From Flavobacteriales bacterium (GTDB lineage Bacteria; Bacteroidota; Bacteroidia; Flavobacteriales_C; GCA-002722245): DNA of 64,000 bases. Shown piece after piece: positions 4,966-48,338 of this stretch. Location of the stretch: contig JAHEZM010000009.1 of the NCBI GenBank assembly GCA_023251075.1, positions 25,394-89,393 of the forward strand, read 5' to 3'. The notes beneath the pieces are model-generated. The model searched no databases. It was not told where the DNA came from and worked only from the letters and a program-made list of their open reading frames with translations. The position numbers were made by a program, and so were the translations under genes. The first letter of the stretch is position 1; every line of letters starts with the position of its first letter.

Positions 4966-6161
4966 TTGGTGATAATTTGCATTAAATTTTCGTTGTGAGC
5001 AGACCAAGAAAAATTTTGATGAATAAATTCAAAAGCTCTTTCTGCCAAATTATTTCTTGCTAAAGGATCTTCCAATAAAGTACTAATGTGTGCTGCAAGT
5101 TCTTCCGGACTTGATCCTATTAATAAAACGTTGGCGTGTTGGGCATTAATTCCTTTTGCCGCTTCAGGGGTAACAACTGTTGGCATTTTCATTGCCATAC
5201 TTTGTAACACTTTGTTTTGTAAACCAATACTTGTAATTACGGGAACAATGTTAATTAAACATTGAGCATATGCCTCGCTAATATGACTGAATTTACCTTC
5301 AACATAGATGTTTCTGCTTTGGAGCTTTAGTAGTTTTTTAGGGGGATTTACACCAGCTATTAACAGTTTGATGTTTGGGTCTTTTTTCAAGAGCAAAGGC
5401 AGTACTTGGGTAGCTGCAAAATTGGCTGCATCTCTGTTTGGAGGATAGCCCATGTTACCGGAAAAAAGCAAATCGTATTTTTTTTCGGCGTTGCTTGGTT
5501 TGTATAAACTGAAATCAACGCCATTGGGAATAACATGCATTTTTTCTAAGACGGGGTTAAAAGATAATTTGTCTTGCTCTGATATAATGATATGTTGATG
5601 AAAGTATGGATAGATATGATTTTCATAAGCAATCAATCGTTTGTATTCAAAGCGATACAGCCACGTTAGAAAGTGGTTAGATGAATTCTTAATCTTCAAT
5701 TCAAACCCTTTGGAAAAGCAATCCATATAATCAATTGTTTTTCTATGGACAGGAAAATCTTTAACGTATTCTGAAGTTCTAATTAAGTGACTATATATCA
5801 CATCGGGTTTAATTTCACGAATGTAAGTGGTAATTTTTTTCTTTGTTGCTGACGAATAAAAGTATTGAACCTGTAAAGGTCTTTTGTTTAAAAAGAAAAG
5901 AAATAAATTAAAAATGCGCTTAATCAAGGGGATAGTAAATACCTTAACCGAAGTAAGCGATTGAAATTGCAATAGATCTTCAGGTTTTGGTGGTGTTTCA
6001 TTAATTGCAATTAAGTTAACATCATGATGTTTAGCCAAAAAAAGTATTTGATGGTAGATGCGCAATTTATCTCCTTTTTCTAGGGGATACGGAAAGCGTG
6101 AAGTGATTATAACAATCCTAGCCAAAATTAGGTGTATTAGACAGCAGCTGCAATATATCAA
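4962..6161 (-). CDS. family-4 (GT-B, group 1) glycosyltransferase
   Basis: 399 aa with an N-terminal 'IVIITSRFPYPLEKGDKLRIYHQILFL' GT4 N-domain and a C-terminal 'GVNPPKK...EGKFSHISEAYAQC...TPEAAKGINAQHANVLL' retaining-GT signature region. Confidence 0.8.
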   Translation of the reverse strand: MIYCSCCLIHLILARIVIITSRFPYPLEKGDKLRIYHQILFLAKHHDVNLIAINETPPKPEDLLQFQSLTSVKVFTIPLIKRIFNLFLFFLNKRPLQVQYFYSSATKKKITTYIREIKPDVIYSHLIRTSEYVKDFPVHRKTIDYMDCFSKGFELKIKNSSNHFLTWLYRFEYKRLIAYENHIYPYFHQHIIISEQDKLSFNPVLEKMHVIPNGVDFSLYKPSNAEKKYDLLFSGNMGYPPNRDAANFAATQVLPLLLKKDPNIKLLIAGVNPPKKLLKLQSRNIYVEGKFSHISEAYAQCLINIVPVITSIGLQNKVLQSMAMKMPTVVTPEAAKGINAQHANVLLIGSSPEELAAHISTLLEDPLARNNLAERAFEFIHQNFSWSAHNENLMQIITK

Positions 6162-11841: not shown

Positions 11842-12349
11842 GCAATTACCACGATATGCGCTGATATTTTTTTTACTGGTGGTTTCACAGGTTCTGGTAT
11901 TTAATAATATTTATGTGGGTAATTTCCTGAATGTTTTTCCTTACGTTTTGTTTATTTTTATTTTACCTAGTAATGCCAATCGAGCACTACAATTGGTGCT
12001 CGCTTTTTTAATTGGAATCACCATTGATTTGTTTTCTGATTCTGGTGGAATTCACGCTGCTGCCTGTGTTCCTGTTGCCTACATTCGATCTTTTATTTTA
12101 AGAACTACTGCTTCAGGAGAAAGTACTAACGATACTTTTGTGCCTGATGTTTATTATTTTGGTTTGCGACGATATTTGACCTACGCGGGGATTTTGATGG
12201 TGTTGCACCACAGTATTTTATTTTTTTTAGAAGCGTTCGAATTAGGACATTTTTTTAGTACTATTTTAAAAATTGCAGGAAGCACTTTAATGACCTTGAC
12301 TTTTATTGTTTTGATTCAATATATTTTTATAAAAAATAAAGAAAAGTGA
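11834..12349 (+). CDS. mreD: rod shape-determining protein MreD (polytopic membrane protein)
   Basis: 171 aa, very hydrophobic (about 5 TM). It overlaps mreC by 8 bp and mrdA by 4 bp, in the conserved position. Confidence 0.6.
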   Translation: MIEQLPRYALIFFLLVVSQVLVFNNIYVGNFLNVFPYVLFIFILPSNANRALQLVLAFLIGITIDLFSDSGGIHAAACVPVAYIRSFILRTTASGESTNDTFVPDVYYFGLRRYLTYAGILMVLHHSILFFLEAFELGHFFSTILKIAGSTLMTLTFIVLIQYIFIKNKEK

Positions 12350-14133
12350 ATCAAAATAAAGACAGGCAATATGTTATTATTGGTATCTTTTCTACCATCG
12401 CCCTTATTTTCATTTTTCGTTTGCTTTATTTACAAGTTCTCAATCCCGATTTTCGTGAAGATGCCATCAATATGGGGCGCAAGGTGGTGATTGAATTTCC
12501 CATGCGCGGAACTATTTACGATCGCAACGGAAAGATTTTAGCGCACAATGAAATAGCTTACGATTTAGTGGTTCTGCCTAAAGAAGTAGAGATTGATACA
12601 TTGGCTTTTTGCAAGTTGTTGAATATTGATACGGCTGAATTTAATCGAAGAATGAAGATCGCAAAAACGTATCCTAATGCTTCTTATAAAGAATCGGTTT
12701 TTCAGGAATTAATTAGTGTGGAAGATTACGCAAAAATTGCCGAGCAATTGAATCTTTTCAAAGGATTTCACGGCCAGAGAAGAAATGTACGATCTTATCC
12801 AAAACCTATAGCAGCGCATCTTCTGGGATATATGCAAAAGGTGAGTCCCAATGATAAACATCGCGATAAATATTATGTGAATGATGATTATATCGGTCGC
12901 AGTGGATTGGAAATGTTTTACGAAAAAGAATTGCGCGGAATTAAAGGAATTAAAAATTGGAGACGCGATAGAAGTAACAATGTAAAAGGGAAATATTTAG
13001 ATGGTGAACTGGATCAGAAATCTTTTCCCGGTAAAGATTTACATACTTCCATCGATGCCGATGTGCAGGAATATGCCGAGCAATTGATGCATGGAAAACG
13101 AGGAAGCATCATTGCTATTGATCCCAGCAATGGAGAAATTATTTGTATGGTATCTGCCCCAACTTACAATCCTAATGATTTGGTAGGAAGATATTTCAGC
13201 AAGAATTACGATACTATTTTTAATCAGGAAGGCCAGCCCTTATTTTTTAGAAGTATAGCCGCTACGCAGCCACCAGGATCAATTGTGAAAACCATGCAAT
13301 CGGCTATCGCATTAGATATGGGCGTGGCCAATGCCAACACCAAATATCCGTGTAATAAATCTTTGGTGGGTTGTCATGATCATCCCGGACCATTGAATTT
13401 GCCGCAGTCGGTTCAGAGCTCTTGTAATCCCTATTATTACATGTTGGTGAAAAGTATTTTATACAAAGATGGATCTATAGAAACTGGATTGAACAATTGG
13501 GAAAGCATTGTTAGAACCTTTGGTTTTGGAAATCCTTTGGGCGTTGATTTACCGGGAGAAAAAGATGGCAATGTGCCTGATTCGCGTGAGTACAATGCTA
13601 CTTATGGTAAAGGGCATTGGAATTATAGAACGGTTTATTCATTGAGTATCGGACAAGGAGAATTTGCGCTTACGCCTCTGCAAATGGCGAATTTAGCAGT
13701 AATTATGGCGAACAAAGGAAAATATTATACCCCTCATATTGTAAGATCATTGGACGATTCGGTGCTTAATTACAAAGATTCAGTGCATATGGTAAGAGTT
13801 GATCCAAAGCATTTTGATGTGGTGCAGGATGGAATGCAATGGGTGATTGAAGAACCTGGAGGAACGGCCAGCAGAGCGCGAATTGATAGCTTGCATTATT
13901 GCGGAAAAACAGGAACTTCTCAAAATCCACATGGAGAAGATCATTCGGTTTTTATTGCTTTTGCACCACGTGAAAATCCTAAAATTGCTATTTCTGTTTA
14001 TATTGAAAATGCAGGAAAGGGAGGTGTTTGGGCAGCACCTATCGCCAGTTTGGTAATTGAAAAATACTTGCGCGGAACCATCAGCAGAAAAGAGTTGGAA
14101 GAAACAATGCTGAAGGGGGTGATTAAGTATTGA
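12346..14133 (+). CDS. mrdA: penicillin-binding protein 2 (elongasome peptidoglycan D,D-transpeptidase)
   Basis: 595 aa with an N-terminal TM, 'SIVKT' as the SxxK active-site box (ATQPPGSIVKTM), 'SCN' for SxN, and 'KTGTS' for KTG. Confidence 0.9.
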   Translation: MNQNKDRQYVIIGIFSTIALIFIFRLLYLQVLNPDFREDAINMGRKVVIEFPMRGTIYDRNGKILAHNEIAYDLVVLPKEVEIDTLAFCKLLNIDTAEFNRRMKIAKTYPNASYKESVFQELISVEDYAKIAEQLNLFKGFHGQRRNVRSYPKPIAAHLLGYMQKVSPNDKHRDKYYVNDDYIGRSGLEMFYEKELRGIKGIKNWRRDRSNNVKGKYLDGELDQKSFPGKDLHTSIDADVQEYAEQLMHGKRGSIIAIDPSNGEIICMVSAPTYNPNDLVGRYFSKNYDTIFNQEGQPLFFRSIAATQPPGSIVKTMQSAIALDMGVANANTKYPCNKSLVGCHDHPGPLNLPQSVQSSCNPYYYMLVKSILYKDGSIETGLNNWESIVRTFGFGNPLGVDLPGEKDGNVPDSREYNATYGKGHWNYRTVYSLSIGQGEFALTPLQMANLAVIMANKGKYYTPHIVRSLDDSVLNYKDSVHMVRVDPKHFDVVQDGMQWVIEEPGGTASRARIDSLHYCGKTGTSQNPHGEDHSVFIAFAPRENPKIAISVYIENAGKGGVWAAPIASLVIEKYLRGTISRKELEETMLKGVIKY

Positions 14134-14153
14134 TATTCTTTATACAGGACGGT

Positions 14154-14245
14154 AGTTCCTTCGTGCCTCAGGATGACAACCACACCCAAACATAGAGTGA
14201 GAGTGAGTTTTGAGAGCGATTGTCATCCTGAGGCACGAAGGAACT
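14154..14245. repeat. palindromic intergenic repeat element, copy 1 (25-bp perfect inverted arms, 42-nt spacer)
   Basis: Left arm 14154-14178 is 'AGTTCCTTCGTGCCTCAGGATGACA'. Right arm 14221-14245 is its exact reverse complement. A near-identical element occurs at 29726-29807. It lies between convergent mrdA (+) and the SGNH-MBOAT gene (-). Confidence 0.85.
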
Positions 14246-14259
14246 AATGTCCTACAAAT

Positions 14260-17106
14260 TTAAAACTGAAAATAAATAAACGGTTGTATTCCTGCTGTTT
14301 TAAATTGAAAAATAATCACAATCATTATTGCAGTTACTATACTTAAAAATGGAACGTTTAATTTGCCTAAGCTCATTTCAATTTTTCTTTCCCATACCTG
14401 TGGGAAAGCGTGTGCCAGGAAACCTAATAGAATGATGGCAAAAATACCTTTGTAACTTTCAATGTAGGTTATGATTAAAGCAAGTGGTGCAATCGTTGCA
14501 TCTTTCGCTCCTGAGAAATTTTCGAAAATTTGATTGAACATATCGCCCATCATACTCATATCTTTTACTCTAAAAAGTATCCAGCAAAAGGCAACAAAAT
14601 GGAAAGTTAAAATGAGTCCGATAAACTTAGGCATCGTCCAACTAAATTTATCTTTCCACCATCTTTCCACAGCCAATGCACCGCCATGTAATCCGCCCCA
14701 AAGAATAAATTTAAAAGCGGCACCGTGCCATAATCCGCCAATGAGCATCGTGAGCAAAAGGTTGATATAAGTTCGCGCTTTCCCAAAACGATTTCCTCCT
14801 AAGGGGATGTATAAATAATCTTTCAGCCAGGTGGATAAAGAGATGTGCCACCGCTTCCAAAATTCTGTGATGCTGTGTGCTAAATATGGCGCGTTGAAAT
14901 TGAGCGGCAAAGTAAATCCCAGAAGCAAAGCAATACCTATAGCCATGTCGCTGTATCCTGAAAAATCACAATAAATTTGAATCGCATAACCATAAATACT
15001 CATCAGGTTTTCAAAGCCCGAATAACTCAATGGATTGTCGAAAACCCGATCTACAAAATTCACCGAAATAAAATCCGATATCACTACTTTTTTAAAGAGT
15101 CCGGTTAAAATCAGGAACATTGCCTTTCCAAAATCTTCTTGAGTTAGGCTGTATTTTTTTTTGATCTGTGGAAGGAAATCGGCAGCACGCACAATAGGTC
15201 CAGCAACCAGTTGCGGAAAGAAGGTGATGAAAAAACCAAAGTCCCAGATGTCTTCAGTAGGTTCAATTTTTCCGTAATAAATATCGATGGTATAGCTTAA
15301 GGTTTGAAAGGTGAAGAAAGAAATTCCTACAGGGAGAATTATTTTATCGATTGCTAGTGAGGTGCCGAAAACAGAATTCGATGCAATAGAGAAGAAATTG
15401 ACGGCTTTAAAATCAGTTTGAAAGATAAGGTTGATGTTGTCGATGATGAACTGAGAATATTTGAAAAAAGCGAGTAATCCTATATTGATAAATAAGCTGA
15501 TGAAGAGCATAGTTCTCTTCGTGGATTTTTTTTTTGAGTTGAATATTTTGAGGGATAGATAGTAATCGAGAATAGTAGAAAAAACGAGGAGGGCGAAAAA
15601 GAACCCTCCAGATTTGTAATAAAAAAATAAGCTAAAAACACTGAGGTAGAGAGCTCGTAATTTGAATTTGTTGTAGATAAAAACGTAGCCAATCATTAGT
15701 ATTAGAAAGAAAATCCAGAAACTATAATTACTGAATATCATAGGATCTTTCGGATCGGTATGAAAAATATCTTTGATCAACACCCAGAAAAAATTTTCTT
15801 TTTGATCATCAATCTTATGCACTTTCCATCCTTTGGTGTGATTGTCGTAACCTTCTATCAATGCATTGTAAAAAATGCTGCCCATAAAATGATACCCTTT
15901 TTCAGAAAGATGTACTTTATCGGCATTTCCCAATCCGTTCGCCAGCCATTGTTCAATGGAGTTTACACCGCCCATTATTTTAAGGAAATCCCAAATGGCA
16001 CAATTGTGTTTTTTAGCCAGAGCGATAATTGTTTTTCGTGCCAGTAAACTTCCTTTGATGGTAACTTTTCTATTTCTTTTGCAATCGCCCGGAGTAATTA
16101 AAACAATAGATGCTGTGGGCATTTTATTGCGAATGGCAGTGAGTAAACTATCGTAATGTTTGTAGAAAATAGAATCGTTAAAGTTGGTGGAATAAATGTC
16201 GTTGGTTCCTAAGGATAATACAATCAAATCGGGATTGTAATACTTTACCTGCTTCACCAAATTTTTGCAGGAAACAAAGGATCCCACTGCAGCACCATTA
16301 ACACCTACTTCACTGCAAACTATTCCCGGACGAGAGTTTTCGAGAATCAACCCTTGTAAAGAAAAAGGAATTTCTGATTGATTTGTTTTGTAGAAATTAA
16401 CGGTAATGGTATCGGTGAGTTTATTGAAAACAAAAGTTTGTATTCCTAAAATACTATCGTTGGTGGAAGAGATGAGGTAAGCCCCTTTTGATGAAACGGT
16501 GATGTTTCTTTTTCCTTTTGTTGGGTCGTATATAACAGAAATTTTATCGTGGTAATAAGTTTCAAAAGTTTTGTTGTTGCAATATACTTTTACAAAAAGA
16601 GAATCTTCGGGAGAAGAAACATTGATGCCTGAAAGTCCCCAATTACAAGCGGTATCAGGATAAATACATTTTTGAGCAGTCCATTTTCCATTGAATCGAA
16701 TACCATAATTTATGGGGCCATTGCTTTTCGCCATAGAATAGGGAAAAACAAAACCGCGTGCTGTGGTTCCGCAATCAAATTTGTTGTGAAAAAGCTCTCT
16801 GGTTTTACCTGTCCAGTAACCTGCTTGCACATGTGAATCACCAATGAACAATACTTTTACTTGTCCGGTTCTTTGCGATTCATAAGTCCATAATTTATTG
16901 TAGAAATTCTCTAAAGTGGTGCTGTCTTTGACGAGGATTTTATTCGATGCATAATCAATAAAGGGGTATTGTTGAATCGTATCAATAGTGTGTTGGGAGA
17001 ATAAGTTAAAAGTTAAAAGTAAAAAGCCAAAAAACACCCCAAGGGATTTTAGCTTATTGCTTTTAACTTTTAACTTTTTACTGTATTTCCAATTCTTTAT
17101 AATCAT
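14260..17106 (-). CDS. fusion protein with an N-terminal periplasmic SGNH/GDSL-like (AlgX/AlgJ/PatB-like) domain and a C-terminal MBOAT membrane O-acyltransferase (AlgI/PatA-like)
   Basis: 948 aa. The N-terminal half has 'VLFIGDSHVQAGYWTG' (SGNH block I, GDSx), 'LSLGTNDIYS' (block III, GxND), and 'DKVHLSEKGYHF' (block V, DxxH). The C-terminal ~480 aa is polytopic with MBOAT hallmarks: 'FWKRWHISLSTWLKDYLYIPLGG' and 'LWHGAAFKFILWG' (conserved His). Confidence 0.8.
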   Translation of the reverse strand: MIIKNWKYSKKLKVKSNKLKSLGVFFGFLLLTFNLFSQHTIDTIQQYPFIDYASNKILVKDSTTLENFYNKLWTYESQRTGQVKVLFIGDSHVQAGYWTGKTRELFHNKFDCGTTARGFVFPYSMAKSNGPINYGIRFNGKWTAQKCIYPDTACNWGLSGINVSSPEDSLFVKVYCNNKTFETYYHDKISVIYDPTKGKRNITVSSKGAYLISSTNDSILGIQTFVFNKLTDTITVNFYKTNQSEIPFSLQGLILENSRPGIVCSEVGVNGAAVGSFVSCKNLVKQVKYYNPDLIVLSLGTNDIYSTNFNDSIFYKHYDSLLTAIRNKMPTASIVLITPGDCKRNRKVTIKGSLLARKTIIALAKKHNCAIWDFLKIMGGVNSIEQWLANGLGNADKVHLSEKGYHFMGSIFYNALIEGYDNHTKGWKVHKIDDQKENFFWVLIKDIFHTDPKDPMIFSNYSFWIFFLILMIGYVFIYNKFKLRALYLSVFSLFFYYKSGGFFFALLVFSTILDYYLSLKIFNSKKKSTKRTMLFISLFINIGLLAFFKYSQFIIDNINLIFQTDFKAVNFFSIASNSVFGTSLAIDKIILPVGISFFTFQTLSYTIDIYYGKIEPTEDIWDFGFFITFFPQLVAGPIVRAADFLPQIKKKYSLTQEDFGKAMFLILTGLFKKVVISDFISVNFVDRVFDNPLSYSGFENLMSIYGYAIQIYCDFSGYSDMAIGIALLLGFTLPLNFNAPYLAHSITEFWKRWHISLSTWLKDYLYIPLGGNRFGKARTYINLLLTMLIGGLWHGAAFKFILWGGLHGGALAVERWWKDKFSWTMPKFIGLILTFHFVAFCWILFRVKDMSMMGDMFNQIFENFSGAKDATIAPLALIITYIESYKGIFAIILLGFLAHAFPQVWERKIEMSLGKLNVPFLSIVTAIMIVIIFQFKTAGIQPFIYFQF

Positions 17107-28928: not shown

Positions 28929-29702
28929 CTAAAAATTCGCCTTTCTTTTTTCCAAAAATGCAGTAGTTCCTTCCGTAAAATCTTTGGTGCCGAAGCATTC
29001 TCCGAATAATTTTATTTCTTCCGCAAAACCACTCACACCATCGGTGTAATTGGCATTTACCGCTTTAATGGCAGAACTTAATGCCATAGGAGAATTTTTG
29101 ATTATTTTTTTTGCGATGTCGTTCGCTTTAGTGAGCAATTCCAAAGAAGGAACAACATGATTCACCAAGCCATAATGCAAGGCTGTTTTCGAATCAATCA
29201 TTTCTGCAGTGAGAATCATTTCCATTGCTTTCGATTTCCCTATCAACTGTGGTAAACGCTGAGTTCCCCCATAACCAGGTATAACGCCTAATCCTACTTC
29301 AGGTAAGCCCATTTTTGCATTTTCAGATGCAATGCGAATATGACAAGCCATCGCCAATTCCAGTCCGCCGCCCAAGGCAAATCCGTTGATGGCAGCAATT
29401 ACAGGTTTTGTAAAATGGGCTACTTTATCGAATAACAATTCATGACCTTTTGCACTCAGTTGTTTTCCTTGTTCAGTGGAAAATTGCGCAAATTCTTTAA
29501 TGTCGGCACCTGCCACAAAAGCTTTTTCTCCTGCGCCTGTGATGATTAATACACGGCATGAATTATCGCTTTCCAAAGAAGTTAATACTGTATTTAATTC
29601 TTCAATGGTTTGTTTGTTGAGCGCATTGAGTTGTTGTGGACGGTTGATAGTGATGGTAGCAATTCCATCATTAATTTGTGAAAGAATGTTGGTGTAAGAC
29701 AT
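28929..29702 (-). CDS. enoyl-CoA hydratase/isomerase (crotonase) family protein
   Basis: 'ITINRPQQLNALN', 'LIITGAGEKAFVAGADIKE' and 'AAINGFALGGGLELAMACHIRIAS' are present. The ORF-track start at 29759 runs into the palindromic repeat ('MVVILRHEGT'). The internal ATG at 29702 is the likely true start. Confidence 0.85.
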   Translation of the reverse strand: MSYTNILSQINDGIATITINRPQQLNALNKQTIEELNTVLTSLESDNSCRVLIITGAGEKAFVAGADIKEFAQFSTEQGKQLSAKGHELLFDKVAHFTKPVIAAINGFALGGGLELAMACHIRIASENAKMGLPEVGLGVIPGYGGTQRLPQLIGKSKAMEMILTAEMIDSKTALHYGLVNHVVPSLELLTKANDIAKKIIKNSPMALSSAIKAVNANYTDGVSGFAEEIKLFGECFGTKDFTEGTTAFLEKRKANF

Positions 29703-29725
29703 AATTTTGGCTTTGATGTGTTGGG

Positions 29726-29807
29726 CAATAGTTCCTTCGTGCCTCAGGATGACAACCACAGTACAGACAAGTTTTGTATGTCATCCTGAGGCACGAAGGA
29801 ACTATTG
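29726..29807. repeat. palindromic intergenic repeat element, copy 2 (29-bp perfect inverted arms, 24-nt spacer)
   Basis: The left arm 'CAATAGTTCCTTCGTGCCTCAGGATGACA' (29726-29754) and right arm 29779-29807 are exact reverse complements. The core is identical to copy 1 at 14154-14245. It lies between the ROK kinase stop and the enoyl-CoA hydratase start. Confidence 0.85.
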
Positions 29808-29816
29808 TCCTGTATA

Positions 29817-30779
29817 TTATTTTCTTCCTTTTGAAACTTCTTCGGCTGCTAATGCTGCTGCACCAACAATGGCAGCATTGGGGCCAGGTAAAGTTGACTT
29901 CAATAATTTTACTTTCCCTTTCCACATGTGCAACATAAATTCGTTCATGTATTTTTCGGTTGGAACCAGCAATACTTCATTTGCTTTAACCATTCCACCA
30001 TAAAGAATAATGGCTTCCGGACGAGTTATCGCTACCAAGTTTGCCAAACCGATACCTAATTTCCTTGCTGTGAAATCAAATATTTCAATCGCCAATTGAT
30101 CACCATCTCTTGCTGCATCACCAATCATTTTTCCGGTTATATTTTCTTTACCTACTGCTTTTAAAGTTGAATTGCCTGTGTAGTTTTCAGCCATTTGTCG
30201 GGCAGTATTTACTAGGCCGGTAACAGAAGCATAAGTTTCCAAACAACCATATCTTCCGCAGTTGCAGAGGCGTCCGTTTTCTTCAATAATGATGTGTCCG
30301 AGTTCTCCGGCAAAGCCGTCGTGCCCGTAAACCATTTCATCGTTCACCACTACTCCTGAGCCCACTCCGGTGCCTAAAGTAATTACTGCGAAATCGCGCA
30401 TTCCTTTAGCAGCACCAAATAGTTTTTCTCCAATCGCTGCAGCATTGGCATCATTGGTAACATAAGTAGATAATCCTGTTCTTTTTTCAATTTCTTTTTT
30501 CAAAGGTAAATCACCTCTCCACAAGAGATTCACGGCTTCCTGAATCATCCCGTTATAGTAATTCGCGTTAGGTGCACCTATGCCAATACCTAAACATTCT
30601 TTGTCTTTGTTGGCGTTGATAATGGTTTTAATTTCGTCAGATAAAGTATCTACAAACATTTCAAAAACGGGATAGGCTTTTGTTGACAAATTTTTGTAAG
30701 CTACAACGTGTCCCTTTTCATCAACTAATCCAATTTCTGTGTTGGTTCCTCCAATGTCGATTCCGATAGTGTATTTCAT
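29817..30779 (-). CDS. ROK-family sugar kinase (glucokinase / N-acetylglucosamine kinase-like)
   Basis: 320 aa. 'IGIDIGGTNTEIGLV' is the ATP-binding motif. 'CNCGRYGCLETY' is the ROK zinc-binding CxCGxxGCxE motif. Confidence 0.85.
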   Translation of the reverse strand: MKYTIGIDIGGTNTEIGLVDEKGHVVAYKNLSTKAYPVFEMFVDTLSDEIKTIINANKDKECLGIGIGAPNANYYNGMIQEAVNLLWRGDLPLKKEIEKRTGLSTYVTNDANAAAIGEKLFGAAKGMRDFAVITLGTGVGSGVVVNDEMVYGHDGFAGELGHIIIEENGRLCNCGRYGCLETYASVTGLVNTARQMAENYTGNSTLKAVGKENITGKMIGDAARDGDQLAIEIFDFTARKLGIGLANLVAITRPEAIILYGGMVKANEVLLVPTEKYMNEFMLHMWKGKVKLLKSTLPGPNAAIVGAAALAAEEVSKGRK

Positions 30780-34406: not shown

Positions 34407-35041
34407 GAAGCCATAGGTGATGCCTTACGCGTTTGAATCCAAACTTTTCCTTCACCGCTGAATTTACAAACCAATCCTTCACCTGAAAAGAACAAGGATT
34501 TATATCCGCCAAATCGTGTAACACGATAACTTAAGCCACCGGTAAATGCAACAATATTTCCTGTATCTACTACATAAGAATCCTTTACATCAATTTCGAT
34601 GATGCCACCAAAAGAATTAAACCAAAGATCTCCTGTGCCTGTGCATTGTGCTAAAAATAAACTTTCACCGCTGAAGAAGCCTTTAAATCCCTGCCATTTA
34701 GAATCTACTTTTACAGTGGGCGCAGAAGCAACATAGCCTGAACTTTGCAAATACAAAGTTTCATTTCCATTGAGTTTATAATGTACCAAATCGCCAGGAG
34801 AAGCGGGTGCAATTTTAATTTCTGCATCGCCATTTTCTGCAGTGAAATCATTAATGAAAATAGATTCACCGGTTAAAAATCTACCGAAGCCACCTTTCAA
34901 CTTAGTTTTCATTTTAAGGTTGGTATCCATAGTAGCCATTGCCGATGCTTCCACATTTAATGTTTTTCCAGAAGGAATTTTAACGGTGAGCAGTGCGTAA
35001 TCGGGAGCGCCTTCAATATAATGTTCAAATGAGTTTTCCAT
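34367..35041 (-). CDS. AIM24/TIGR00266 (DUF124) family protein, paralog 3
   Basis: 224 aa. It contains 'TGESIFINDFTAENG', 'PGDLVHYKLNG', 'GESLFLAQCTGTGDLWFNSFGGI', 'VVDTGNIVAF' and 'GEGLVCKFSGEGKVWIQT'. This is the characteristic duplicated GES/GEG...GxGxV pattern of the AIM24 family. Confidence 0.8.
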   Translation of the reverse strand: MENSFEHYIEGAPDYALLTVKIPSGKTLNVEASAMATMDTNLKMKTKLKGGFGRFLTGESIFINDFTAENGDAEIKIAPASPGDLVHYKLNGNETLYLQSSGYVASAPTVKVDSKWQGFKGFFSGESLFLAQCTGTGDLWFNSFGGIIEIDVKDSYVVDTGNIVAFTGGLSYRVTRFGGYKSLFFSGEGLVCKFSGEGKVWIQTRKASPMASWAYPFRPEGKNN

Positions 35042-35068
35042 ATTATTCTAAATATTTTTTGTTTTGAA

Positions 35069-35746
35069 TTATCTTGGTTTTAATCCTGGAGTTAAATTGA
35101 AGCCAAATGAGCTTTCGTTGTGTGATTGGCACCAAACAGTTCCTTTTCCTTTGAAGCGACAAATTAATCCTTCACCACCAAAGTAGGAATTGATCCATGA
35201 GGAGCCAGCAGTACCGATACTAAAATTCAATGTTTCCTGAAAGGCAACAATATGGCCGGTATCCACCACATATTCACCATCTACTTCTATAGGATAAATG
35301 GCGCCAAATGAATTTAAAATTACTGTTCCTTTTCCTGATGCGCTCAGCCAAAAAGAGCTTTCACCAGAGAATAAAGATTTAAATCCTTGCCAGTTAAAAT
35401 CAATATTTACATCATGATCAGAGGCAACATAAGAACCTGCCTGCACAATTAATTTATCTCCATTTAATTCGTAAGTGAACATATCTCCCGGCAATGTAGT
35501 TCCTAAGTAAACTTCACCTGCCTGAGCTCCTGCGGTAAAATGATTTAAGAAGAAACTTTCTCCTGATAACATTCTTTTTAATGCCTTGATAATTCCTCTC
35601 TGATCTTTTTTATGCGTAGTGGTTTGTACTTGTAAATTATCACTCATAGCAATCATTGCACCTGCTTCTGCAGTGAATGATTCTCCTGCCTGCAAAGTAA
35701 CTTTTGCCGATGCAGCACCTGGTCCTTTTTCTATTTTTACGTTCAT
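35069..35746 (-). CDS. AIM24/TIGR00266 (DUF124) family protein, paralog 2
   Basis: 225 aa. It contains 'SGESFFLNHFTAGAQ', 'GESSFWLSASGKGTVILNSFGAI', 'VVDTGHIVAF' and 'GEGLICRFKGKGTVWCQS'. Confidence 0.8.
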   Translation of the reverse strand: MNVKIEKGPGAASAKVTLQAGESFTAEAGAMIAMSDNLQVQTTTHKKDQRGIIKALKRMLSGESFFLNHFTAGAQAGEVYLGTTLPGDMFTYELNGDKLIVQAGSYVASDHDVNIDFNWQGFKSLFSGESSFWLSASGKGTVILNSFGAIYPIEVDGEYVVDTGHIVAFQETLNFSIGTAGSSWINSYFGGEGLICRFKGKGTVWCQSHNESSFGFNLTPGLKPR

Positions 35747-35756
35747 AATTTTTTGA

Positions 35757-36416
35757 TTAAAAGAATTTATTCAACCATTTGGTTAACCCGCTAACACTTC
35801 TAGATTGAATGATTATTTTTCCTTTTCCTTCCACACGGGTAACGAGTCCTTCCCCTCCAAAAAAGCTGGAGAAAATGCCTCCCGATAATTGCATTTTCAA
35901 TTTCATTTGAGGTTCGTAGCCTACTAAATGACTAGAATCTACAATGTATTCACCATCAATTTCTTTTTCAATCAATGCGCCATATGCACCATAAATTACT
36001 TTTCCGCTTCCGCTTACCTGAAGTTTGAATAAGCCTTCTCCTCCTACGAATGAAGCGATTCCAGCCCATTTAACACCTAGTTTTATGCCGGGTGTAGAAG
36101 CAACATAACTTCCACCTTGTAAACAATAACTTCCGTCATTCAATTCCAATACCCTCATGTCGCCGGGAGTAGGTTGTGTTAGAGTTACTCTTTTTACCTG
36201 ATTGCTGGTGTTGGTGATATGATTTACGAAGAAACTTTCTCCACCTACATATTTTTTCACCAGTCCGCCAATAATGCCACCATTGGTTTTGGCCGTCATT
36301 TGTAATTCTGCAGCCATACTGGCCATAGCATCGGCTTCTGCAATAATTGTTTCACCGGGTTGTAGCTCTACATTGATGTAGGTAAACGCGGGTTGTCCTG
36401 CTAAATTGATTTCCAT
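35757..36416 (-). CDS. AIM24/TIGR00266 (DUF124) family protein, paralog 1
   Basis: 219 aa. It contains 'GGESFFVNHITNTS', 'GEGLFKLQVSGSGKVIYGAYGAL', 'IVDSSHLVGY' and 'GEGLVTRVEGKGKIIIQS'. Confidence 0.8.
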   Translation of the reverse strand: MEINLAGQPAFTYINVELQPGETIIAEADAMASMAAELQMTAKTNGGIIGGLVKKYVGGESFFVNHITNTSNQVKRVTLTQPTPGDMRVLELNDGSYCLQGGSYVASTPGIKLGVKWAGIASFVGGEGLFKLQVSGSGKVIYGAYGALIEKEIDGEYIVDSSHLVGYEPQMKLKMQLSGGIFSSFFGGEGLVTRVEGKGKIIIQSRSVSGLTKWLNKFF

Positions 36417-48257: not shown

Positions 48258-48273
48258 TATTTCGTTTAGAAAG

Positions 48274-48322
48274 AATCATCACCGATATTATGCAATTCAT
48301 TTGCATAATATCGGTGATGATT
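48274..48322 (+). terminator. 22-bp perfect inverted repeat hairpin 17 nt after the gpsA stop (putative terminator or protein-binding palindrome)
   Basis: 'aatcatcaccgatattatgcaa-ttcat-ttgcataatatcggtgatgatt' is followed by 'ttgtatatttg'. The stem is unusually long and perfect. Confidence 0.6.
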
Positions 48323-48338
48323 TTGTATATTTGAAATT

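Follow-up and report, generated by a model that had tools for sequence, protein, structure and literature searches.

GTC-tagged hairpin doublets with a tandem G.A stem in a Flavobacteriales contig and their probable relation to Ssn-associated repeats

This work concerns two long intergenic palindromes, at positions 14154-14245 (copy 1) and 29726-29807 (copy 2), in a 64,000-nt stretch of contig JAHEZM010000009.1 from a Flavobacteriales bacterium; the whole stretch is called the window below. With a probability of roughly 70%, we consider both palindromes to be doublets of a short hairpin repeat with a GTC tag, and this repeat to be a Bacteroidota/cyanobacterial variant of the repetitive extragenic palindromes (REPs) tagged with CGTC, also called Ssn-related motifs (SRMs). 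The evidence comes from the anatomy of the repeat unit, its recurrence at gene 3' ends in other genomes and in metagenomes, and the small GIY-YIG nuclease genes which are flanked by such units in relatives.

The two palindromes

The 23-mer GTCATCCTGAGGCACGAAGGAAC occurs four times in the window without a mismatch, arranged as two inverted pairs, and was found in none of 100 shuffled sequences. In copy 1, perfect 25-nt arms (14154-14178 and 14221-14245), which are exact reverse complements, enclose a 42-nt spacer between the convergent mrdA and SGNH-MBOAT genes, as an initial annotation had read from the sequence and as Pfam searches of the neighbouring genes agree. The recurrence of the arms in copy 2, claimed there as well, was borne out, with perfect 29-nt arms (29726-29754 and 29779-29807) and a 24-nt spacer. 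The left part shared by the two copies is 32 nt long according to a repeat finder (TAGTTCC...GACAACCACA), and both palindromes extend outwards imperfectly, copy 1 to 14146-14253 (45-nt arms, 87% complementary) and copy 2 to 29723-29810 (32-nt arms, 97%). As the likeness between the two loci is confined to the arms, a segmental duplication is excluded, and the copies do occupy unrelated sites. Folding, suggested earlier as a check, predicted very stable RNA hairpins for both copies (-62 to -73 kcal/mol, z -10 to -12) and DNA hairpins of about -37 to -38 kcal/mol. The elements and their neighbours are as follows.

14146..14253, no strand: copy 1, whole element, filling nearly all of the 126 nt that separate the stops of mrdA (14133) and SGNH-MBOAT (14260)
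14155..14177, minus strand: left unit of copy 1, GTCATCCTGAGGCACGAAGGAAC, exact match, GTC tag toward the spacer
14179..14220, plus strand: spacer of copy 1, 42 nt, AACCACACCCAAACATAGAGTGAGAGTGAGTTTTGAGAGCGAT, spacer type C (..CAGAGTGAGAGTGAGTTTTGAGAGTGGTT)
14222..14244, plus strand: right unit of copy 1, GTCATCCTGAGGCACGAAGGAAC, exact match
29723..29810, no strand: copy 2, whole element, flanked by the stop of the ROK kinase (29817) and the ATG of the enoyl-CoA hydratase (29702)
29731..29753, minus strand: left unit of copy 2, exact match
29755..29778, plus strand: spacer of copy 2, 24 nt between the perfect arms, ACCACAGTACAGACAAGTTTTGTA, spacer type A
29780..29802, plus strand: right unit of copy 2, exact match
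12346..14133, plus strand: PBP2 (mrdA), flanking copy 1 (Pfam)
14260..17106, minus strand: SGNH-MBOAT acyltransferase, convergent with mrdA (Pfam)
28929..29702, minus strand: enoyl-CoA hydratase, flanking copy 2, true ATG at 29702 (Pfam and homologues)
29817..30779, minus strand: ROK-family kinase, located upstream of the hydratase gene and in the same orientation (Pfam)

Structure of the repeat unit

Each arm contains a 23-nt unit, GTC-ATCCT-GA-G[GCA]C-GA-AGGAA-C, a small hairpin tagged with GTC at its 5' end and carrying a tandem G.A mismatch. Across the family, the unit is (T/C)GTC-ATCCT-GA-G[loop]C-GA-AGGA(A/T)-C-TA, with a 5-bp stem, a tandem G.A/A.G, a distal helix of 1-2 bp and a loop of 3-4 nt (3 nt in the window units, 4 nt in relatives). 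The stems of inverted partners change on both sides, giving TCCT/AGGA, TTCT/AGAA, TGCT/AGCA, TCCC/GGGA, TCTC/GAGA and TTTC/GAAA, while the GTC 5' of the stem, the GA...GA within it and the C 3' of it stay constant. When matches to the bare anchor GTCA-N4-GA-N(3-8)-GA-N4 were counted, 19 of 126 carried a fully complementary stem other than TCCT/AGGA, compared with about 2 by permutation. An alignment of 27 distinct units showed double-sided changes in 4/6 pairs; the percentage paired at pairs 6-9 is circular because these pairs were selected for complementarity, whereas the distal pair 12-19, which was not selected for, is paired in 26/27 units (G-C, C-G or A-U) and has five double-sided changes. 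In the same alignment no unit departs from G2, T3 or C4, and conservation reaches at least 90% at C27. The pattern of GTC and 3' C also appears in partner arms found with up to 6 errors, with the Roseivirga units (TTCAT or CTTTT) as the exception. Most units carry the tag TGTC, with CGTC or GGTC in other phyla, and end in a CTA, CTC or CTG tail; the first A-T pair is AU in 18/27 units and A.A in the window lineage. A likeness of 'CUGA...GA' to hammerhead and C/D-box (k-turn) motifs was dropped, since the core positions misfit and there is no bulge.

Distribution of the family

Scanning species-representative genomes with the exact 20-mer CATCCTGAGGCACGAAGGAA led to 22 loci in six Bacteroidota genera and four other phyla, in genomes with 33-68% G+C. 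The Bacteroidota sources are Flavobacterium, metagenome-assembled genomes (MAGs) labelled Chryseobacterium, Pedobacter, Spirosoma, Roseivirga and Parasediminibacterium, and the remaining ones are MAGs of Thermomicrobiales, Verrucomicrobia, Chthoniobacterales, Chthonomonadales and Desulfobacteraceae. Nearly all of the 22 loci have a degenerate inverted partner beside the match. In metagenomes, the pattern GTCATCCTGAG-N(3-9)-CGAAGGAACTATTG detected 93 loci with 86 doublets, representing 56 distinct sites. Both GTC tags point toward the spacer in 75 of 78 doublets, as they do in the window, and the loop type matches between the two arms in 66 of 78. At the 40 sites where both neighbours could be called, the gene context was convergent (24) or tandem (16) and never divergent, so that the elements lie at gene 3' ends only, and a smaller genome set gave the same picture. 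The dispersed REP-like family postulated in the initial annotation is therefore real, and it is spread over many unrelated 3' intergenic positions within a clade of uncultured Flavobacteriales.

About five types of spacer can be distinguished, which recur at unrelated sites and include both window spacers. Type A (26 nt, AACCACAGTA..TT.GTAT), to which the copy 2 spacer belongs, is the commonest, with 15/53 metagenome sites; type C includes the copy 1 spacer, with its (GAGTGA)2 and GTTTTGAGAG, and was also seen at the unrelated sites L077, L083, L085, L063, L062 and L114 (loci are cited by our own numbers). The AGTTTTG pointed out earlier in both spacers and the (GAGTGA)2 tract of copy 1 are indeed present, and since AGTTTTG and GAGTGA recur with the spacer types at unrelated sites, they are parts of conserved spacer families and not local quirks. 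Outside the unit, the arm consensus is TATTGYCCTAcAc.T.AAAt, making about 46 nt per arm, with the base run GTGGTT|GTC ahead of the tag on one side; the information content peaks in the inner unit and fades gradually outward. The doublet, an inverted pair of units together with one of about five conserved spacer types, behaves as one evolving unit. In viral contigs no exact 23-mer occurred and a scan for GIY-YIG relatives confirmed none. In the full text of the literature, the repeat sequence and strings related to it brought up nothing but unrelated primers, and a generic finder of perfect-stem GTC-hairpins found no further ones above chance in the window (2 compared with 9.5 in shuffles).

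A second repeat family adjoins some of the doublets, at about 5680-5730 and 5830-5880 in L019, at about 6400-6450 in L012 and in the flanks of L057 and L073. Its sequence, GTC-ATTGC-GA-GATTTTTG-TACC-CAAAAAT-GA-AGCAAT-CTC, seen as ...GAGATTGCTTCATTTTTGGGTACAAAAATCTCGCAATGAC, has the same tag, stem and GA...GA design with a long distal helix.

Association with GIY-YIG nuclease genes

The dRS3-containing NTS (CGTCATTCCCGCGMAVGCGGGAATCYRG) and related SRM hairpins flank Ssn genes, whose product is a single-domain GIY-YIG protein of about 94 aa (Chenal et al., Nat Commun 2025, PMC11893778). When GIY-YIG genes were located by motif regular expression and tblastn over the repeat-bearing loci (1.04 Mb), seven small open reading frames (ORFs), six of them independent, were found, and each has units on either side at a distance of at most 100 nt. 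They lie in L005, L113 (same locus as L069), L084, L003 (Parasediminibacterium) and L016 (Roseivirga, two genes); L005 and L113/L069 belong to the Flavobacteriales clade, and all three units of L113 are identical to the window arms. The encoded proteins (91-114 aa, mutually 54-85% identical) have GIY-YIG as their only domain (PF01541, E 1e-13 to 1e-18).

For a test free of repeat bias, a plasmid collection was searched with the L005 protein and four hits were inspected, in all of which (4/4) GTC-tagged hairpins flank the gene. Two of them carry tandem-GA units, namely plasmids of Spirosoma oryzicola (L130; TGTC-ATCCC-GA-GGAAC-GA-GGGAT-C) and Planktothrix agardhii (L131; TGTC-ATTCT-GA-GTGAAAC-GA-AGAAT-C). 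The Sinorhizobium meliloti gene is surrounded by classical CGTC-3 units, and nine NTS copies lie around the ssnA homologue of a gonococcal chromosome. In all, eight independent loci hold GIY-YIG genes of about 100 aa flanked by units of the design described here, in Flavobacteriales, Parasediminibacterium, Roseivirga, Spirosoma and Planktothrix. The L005 protein and the NTS-flanked gonococcal SsnA share 35% identity over 92 aa, with E 1e-17 in the pairwise comparison, for which the N-terminus of the gonococcal sequence was guessed while the aligned part is the true translation, and E 3e-9 by tblastn against a 7.3-Gb database. We infer that the source organism would encode its cognate GIY-YIG nuclease outside the window.

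Two of the plasmid-collection loci deserve a separate remark. In L131 (Planktothrix agardhii plasmid NZ_LR882964.1, 18253-19704) the Ssn-like gene lies between an MmeI-type restriction-modification gene and DISARM drmA, i.e. in a defence island, and is followed downstream by a short tandem array of three copies of ttctcctgtgctgtcattctgag. The PLSDB entries NZ_CP119142.1 and NZ_CP119140.1 (L129) are labelled as Neisseria gonorrhoeae plasmids and are actually 2.17-Mb chromosomes with almost no annotation; L129 supplied a bona fide NTS-flanked ssnA locus, in which the ATG upstream of the aligned frame is out of frame by one base in that strain.

History of the two window copies

Relatives of the window were retrieved via PBP2, the enoyl-CoA hydratase and the MBOAT protein. 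The gene order HK-ROK-ECH (ROK kinase, enoyl-CoA hydratase) is conserved, and the ROK-ECH spacer is occupied by an element in every relative examined (L026/27, L028/29 and L030/31, with hydratases 85-89% identical to that of the window). At this site conservation is limited to the arms, with the spacer varying freely in sequence and length, and three different types of spacer are seen at the one orthologous site. L028 has an identical A-to-C change in both arms, and the left arm of L026 has diverged with its own internal pairing kept (CCC/GGG). The units of the relatives have a loop 3 nt longer (GAGG-TACC-CCGA), whereas both arms of copy 2 have the short GGCAC form and equal those of copy 1. 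The arms and spacer of copy 2 are about 91% identical to the non-orthologous elements L007, L012 and L019 of other genomes, closer than to the orthologues. From this comparison it looks as if copy 2 was replaced by conversion from another copy.

For copy 1, the block purH-mreB-mreC-mreD-mrdA of relatives runs directly into rodA, in some with a fatty-acid hydroxylase gene between, and the SGNH-MBOAT 3' end abuts other genes with no element. In the window, the element and then the convergent SGNH-MBOAT gene come after mrdA, rodA is absent from the 64 kb, and nucleotide homology to the relatives ends at 14136, 3 nt past the mrdA stop. Together, the lack of an element at either orthologous gene end and this homology stop indicate that copy 1 fills a lineage-specific junction made by rearrangement.

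Proposed mechanism and alternative explanations

The mechanism by which a nuclease might act on the repeat is drawn from homology to Ssn, which binds its hairpin only as single-stranded DNA (ssDNA) and cuts a few nucleotides upstream, cleavage depending critically on the GTC and binding on the C that follows the palindrome (PMC11893778). By homology to SsnA and NTS, the cognate nuclease would bind the unit only when the DNA is single-stranded, as during replication, transformation or conjugation, would use the GTC 5' and the C 3' of the stem, and would nick a few nucleotides upstream of the GTC, which in tag-inward doublets falls inside the spacer. The comparative pattern suggests that such a break could be repaired from other copies with the ~46-nt arms as homology, homogenising the arms within a genome and swapping spacers; this would account for the arms that copy 2 shares exactly with copy 1 and for its spacer type, which differs from those of its orthologues. 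Ectopic recombination between copies may yield junctions, which would explain the position of copy 1 at a synteny breakpoint. At the RNA level, the doublet would form a 30-bp hairpin at the end of transcription units that may stabilise or process 3' ends, and the element would be tolerated only where promoters stay undisrupted. As a tentative extension, the tag-inward doublets might be REPIN-like replicators spread and homogenised by a GIY-YIG (Ssn-like) ssDNA nuclease instead of a transposase, in that a nick in the spacer and repair from another copy would amount to a homing-type gene conversion of a non-coding element, by which spacers are exchanged, arms stay identical within a genome and rearrangements are seeded; in that case the hairpin with tandem GA could represent a new Ssn specificity class in Bacteroidota and cyanobacteria.

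Several observations weigh against the assignment to the Ssn-associated repeats. The published SRM pattern, HGTCWYN(0-2)YYVSBRHN(0-5)WNVSBRGN(0-2)RNCYNB, matches neither the window units nor three family variants, and over the 1.04 Mb it gave only 5 unrelated matches. By hand inspection its ends, HGTCWY and G..RNCYNB, fit the units and the G/C-rich stem part misfits; the pattern fails because the unit stem has an invariant tandem G.A mismatch and is A/T-richer. The 64-kb window contains no GIY-YIG gene, and the solved structures closest to the GIY-YIG proteins are the UPF0213 proteins 1zg2 and 1ywl. Most loci were chosen for carrying the repeat, so that its association with the gene is partly biased by ascertainment, and only the four plasmid-collection loci are unbiased. 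Copy density is low (2 per 64 kb in the window, 0 in about 84 kb of other relative loci), and copy number apparently so as well, compared with hundreds in Neisseria. Described CGTC-REP dimers mostly have their tags outside, the reverse of the inward arrangement in 75/78 doublets here. A single unit is weak alone (-1.4 to -2.5 kcal/mol, no better than shuffles), which argues for protein recognition over autonomous folding. Finally, a single-stranded doublet would fold as one long hairpin burying the GTC tag, making access of the nuclease uncertain. The tandem-GA stem with tag-inward doublets in Bacteroidota is best filed as an undescribed structural variant of the Ssn nuclease/hairpin-repeat system.

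The strongest competitor, though an unlikely one, is a host-selected RNA element, in which the long hairpin terminates transcription or protects or processes mRNA 3' ends, for instance as a barrier to RNase III or exonucleases, and the link to a nuclease is incidental. Placement at 3' ends only (0/40 divergent), conserved arms around a free spacer, the very stable RNA hairpin and matching changes in both arms that keep the long stem (L028; same loop type in 66/78 doublets) would all be expected of it. However, covariation keeps the weak hairpin within the unit even at the cost of arm-arm pairing (L026), and the GTC tag, tandem GA and 3' C are conserved across phyla and would not be needed by a generic stem. 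No Rfam family matched the window at gathering thresholds, and at E-value thresholds only sub-threshold generic miRNA-precursor hairpins appeared. Promoter and terminator scans found no terminator-like site at either locus, and no T-run or U-tract follows the stem on either strand; an intrinsic (Rho-independent) terminator was ruled out on this ground. A role in RNA is compatible with the GTC-tagged hairpin repeat as a secondary one. The terminator or RNA stabiliser role raised in the initial annotation is weakly supported, by the 3'-end placement.

That the doublets are REPINs copied by a single-copy Y1 (HUH) tyrosine transposase (RAYT) encoded elsewhere in the genome appears improbable. The doublet architecture, long vertical persistence at the orthologous site and homogeneity within the genome agree with such a system, and TnpA-Y1 genes of Legionella (class 3) and Planctomyces limnophilus (one, of subclass 2.6) are likewise flanked by hairpins of the same design (PMC6006769). 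On the other hand, six-frame motif searches, a weak detector, revealed no HUH...Y ORF in the window or in the 1.04 Mb where all seven GIY-YIG genes (six independent) are unit-flanked; the tag is (T/C)GTC with no GT[AG]G foot, and Di Nocera et al. (PMC3733652) found no tyrosine transposase with CGTC repeats at its flanks. The Bacteroidetes subclass 2.6 REPs of Quentin et al. differ in sequence from the window family. Least credible is a classical miniature inverted-repeat transposable element (MITE), i.e. a deletion derivative of an insertion sequence with a DDE transposase moved via ~46-nt terminal inverted repeats, which the initial annotation had allowed as an option. Long inverted repeats around a short variable core, a total size of 100-160 bp and the new site of copy 1 would suit a MITE, but at symmetric boundaries no direct repeat of 3 nt or more, and thus no target-site duplication, was found (49 sites, offsets 0-35). 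Moreover, the inner unit is the best-conserved part and conservation falls off outward, the reverse of transposase-bound repeat tips, and in other taxa the unit also occurs singly or in other arrangements. All-against-all BLASTP of the flanking ORFs gave no recurring neighbour protein family beyond orthologous site pairs; no transposase family recurs beside the elements, and the GIY-YIG genes were not flagged as a cluster by this comparison.

Annotation and other features of the window

The elements call for caution in annotation, as they give rise to ORFs and N-terminal extensions that are not genuine. For the hydratase, the longest mechanical ORF (28929..29759, minus strand) starts with a GTG at 29759 inside copy 2 and encodes the spurious 'VILRHEGT'; a 257-aa hydratase homologue is 100% identical from the ATG at 29702, indicating a false extension of 19 codons made by the repeat. 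Two more spurious ORFs, at 29671-29925 and 29707-30003, are found at copy 2, and the warning given earlier about these two ORFs and the false extension was justified.

Three further repeats were observed in the window. The first, at 48259-48337, is an inverted repeat whose 37-nt arms (84% complementary) enclose a 5-nt loop (ATTTCGTTTAGAAAGAATCATCACCGATATTATGCAA / TTGCATAATATCGGTGATGATTTTGTATATTTGAAAT) and whose sequence is unrelated to the family. An A/T-rich inverted repeat with AAAAGTTAAAAG motifs at 17000-17082 (33-nt arms, 88%) overlaps the 5' end of the SGNH-MBOAT ORF (listed ATG 17106). At 34439-36132, diverged repeats in direct orientation recur every 680-695 nt or so (repeat-finder families D1, D3, D11 and D12) and look like tandem domain repeats within a coding region. 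The window also encodes a type IX secretion system (T9SS) sorting domain (Pfam), and its nearest proteins are from Flavobacteriales MAGs.

Comparison with known systems

As hairpins at the RNA level, the elements would resemble other long intergenic palindromes, such as Neisseria Correia/NEMIS and enterobacterial ERIC/BIME, which are co-transcribed with their neighbours and are possible RNase targets or mRNA stabilisers; these have TA duplications or IHF sites and no sequence relation to the family. With REPIN-RAYT systems (Bertels & Rainey 2011; Nunvar 2010; Quentin 2018) the family shares inverted REP doublets evolving as a unit, vertical persistence and a partner gene flanked by its own repeats, yet the partner in this family is a GIY-YIG nuclease and not an HUH/Y1 transposase, and the GTAG foot is missing. 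Some Y1 (TnpA-REP-like) genes, of Legionella class 3 and of Planctomyces limnophilus subclass 2.6, do have hairpins built from a stem, a tandem G.A, 2 bp and a tetraloop, with the sequences CCGC-GA-CC-GTAA-GG-GA-GCGG and CTCTGAGG-TCCT-CCGAAGGG (PMC6006769 supplement). The shared tandem-G.A design may therefore be a recurrent solution for the recognition of ssDNA hairpins by unrelated nucleases.

Closer is the CGTC-tagged REP super-family, which includes Neisseria dRS3 and Rickettsia RPE-4/RPE-6 and reportedly has no associated or flanked tyrosine transposase (Di Nocera et al., BMC Genomics 2013, PMC3733652); Gramella forsetii is the one Bacteroidetes species that could be recognised in the strain list of that study. 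Both families have an unpaired terminal CGTC/TGTC tag, a stem opening with A-T/T-A and a 3-nt tail (published as CCA), and both give rise to spurious peptides in one frame (VIPAKAGI and VIAGLDPAIH for the CGTC-REPs, VILRHEGT in the window). Frequent inverted dimers with 20-100 bp spacers, avoidance of divergent intergenic regions and the absence of an adjacent tyrosine transposase are common to them as well. The described families differ in having perfect 8-9 bp stems with loops of 4-5 nt, whereas the window family has 5 bp, a G.A/A.G, 1-2 bp and a loop of 3-4 nt.

With the Ssn/SRM system, the family shares hairpin units about 26-30 nt long that bear a GTC tag and, immediately 3' of the palindrome, a conserved C, as well as dispersal of the units in intergenic DNA and, in relatives though not in the window, a GIY-YIG gene of ~95-115 aa flanked on both sides by units. 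It differs in its doublets with inward tags and conserved spacers, since the tags of the gonococcal locus point outward, and in its Bacteroidota hosts, which the main text of PMC11893778 does not mention; nuclease activity here would be assigned by homology. CGTC-type REPs have long been described without a dedicated enzyme, and the link to Ssn was made only in 2025, with experiments mainly in Neisseria. A distinct hairpin with tandem G.A and inward tags, missed by the published motif, is here paired with Ssn-like GIY-YIG genes in Flavobacteriales, Chitinophagales, Cytophagales and one cyanobacterium. For the evolution of such repeats, the family offers spacer swapping at one orthologous site, arms made uniform within a genome and a synteny breakpoint that coincides exactly with an element. 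The range of the system is thereby extended to new phyla and to a new hairpin design, which points to a new recognition specificity, possibly useful for ssDNA tools.

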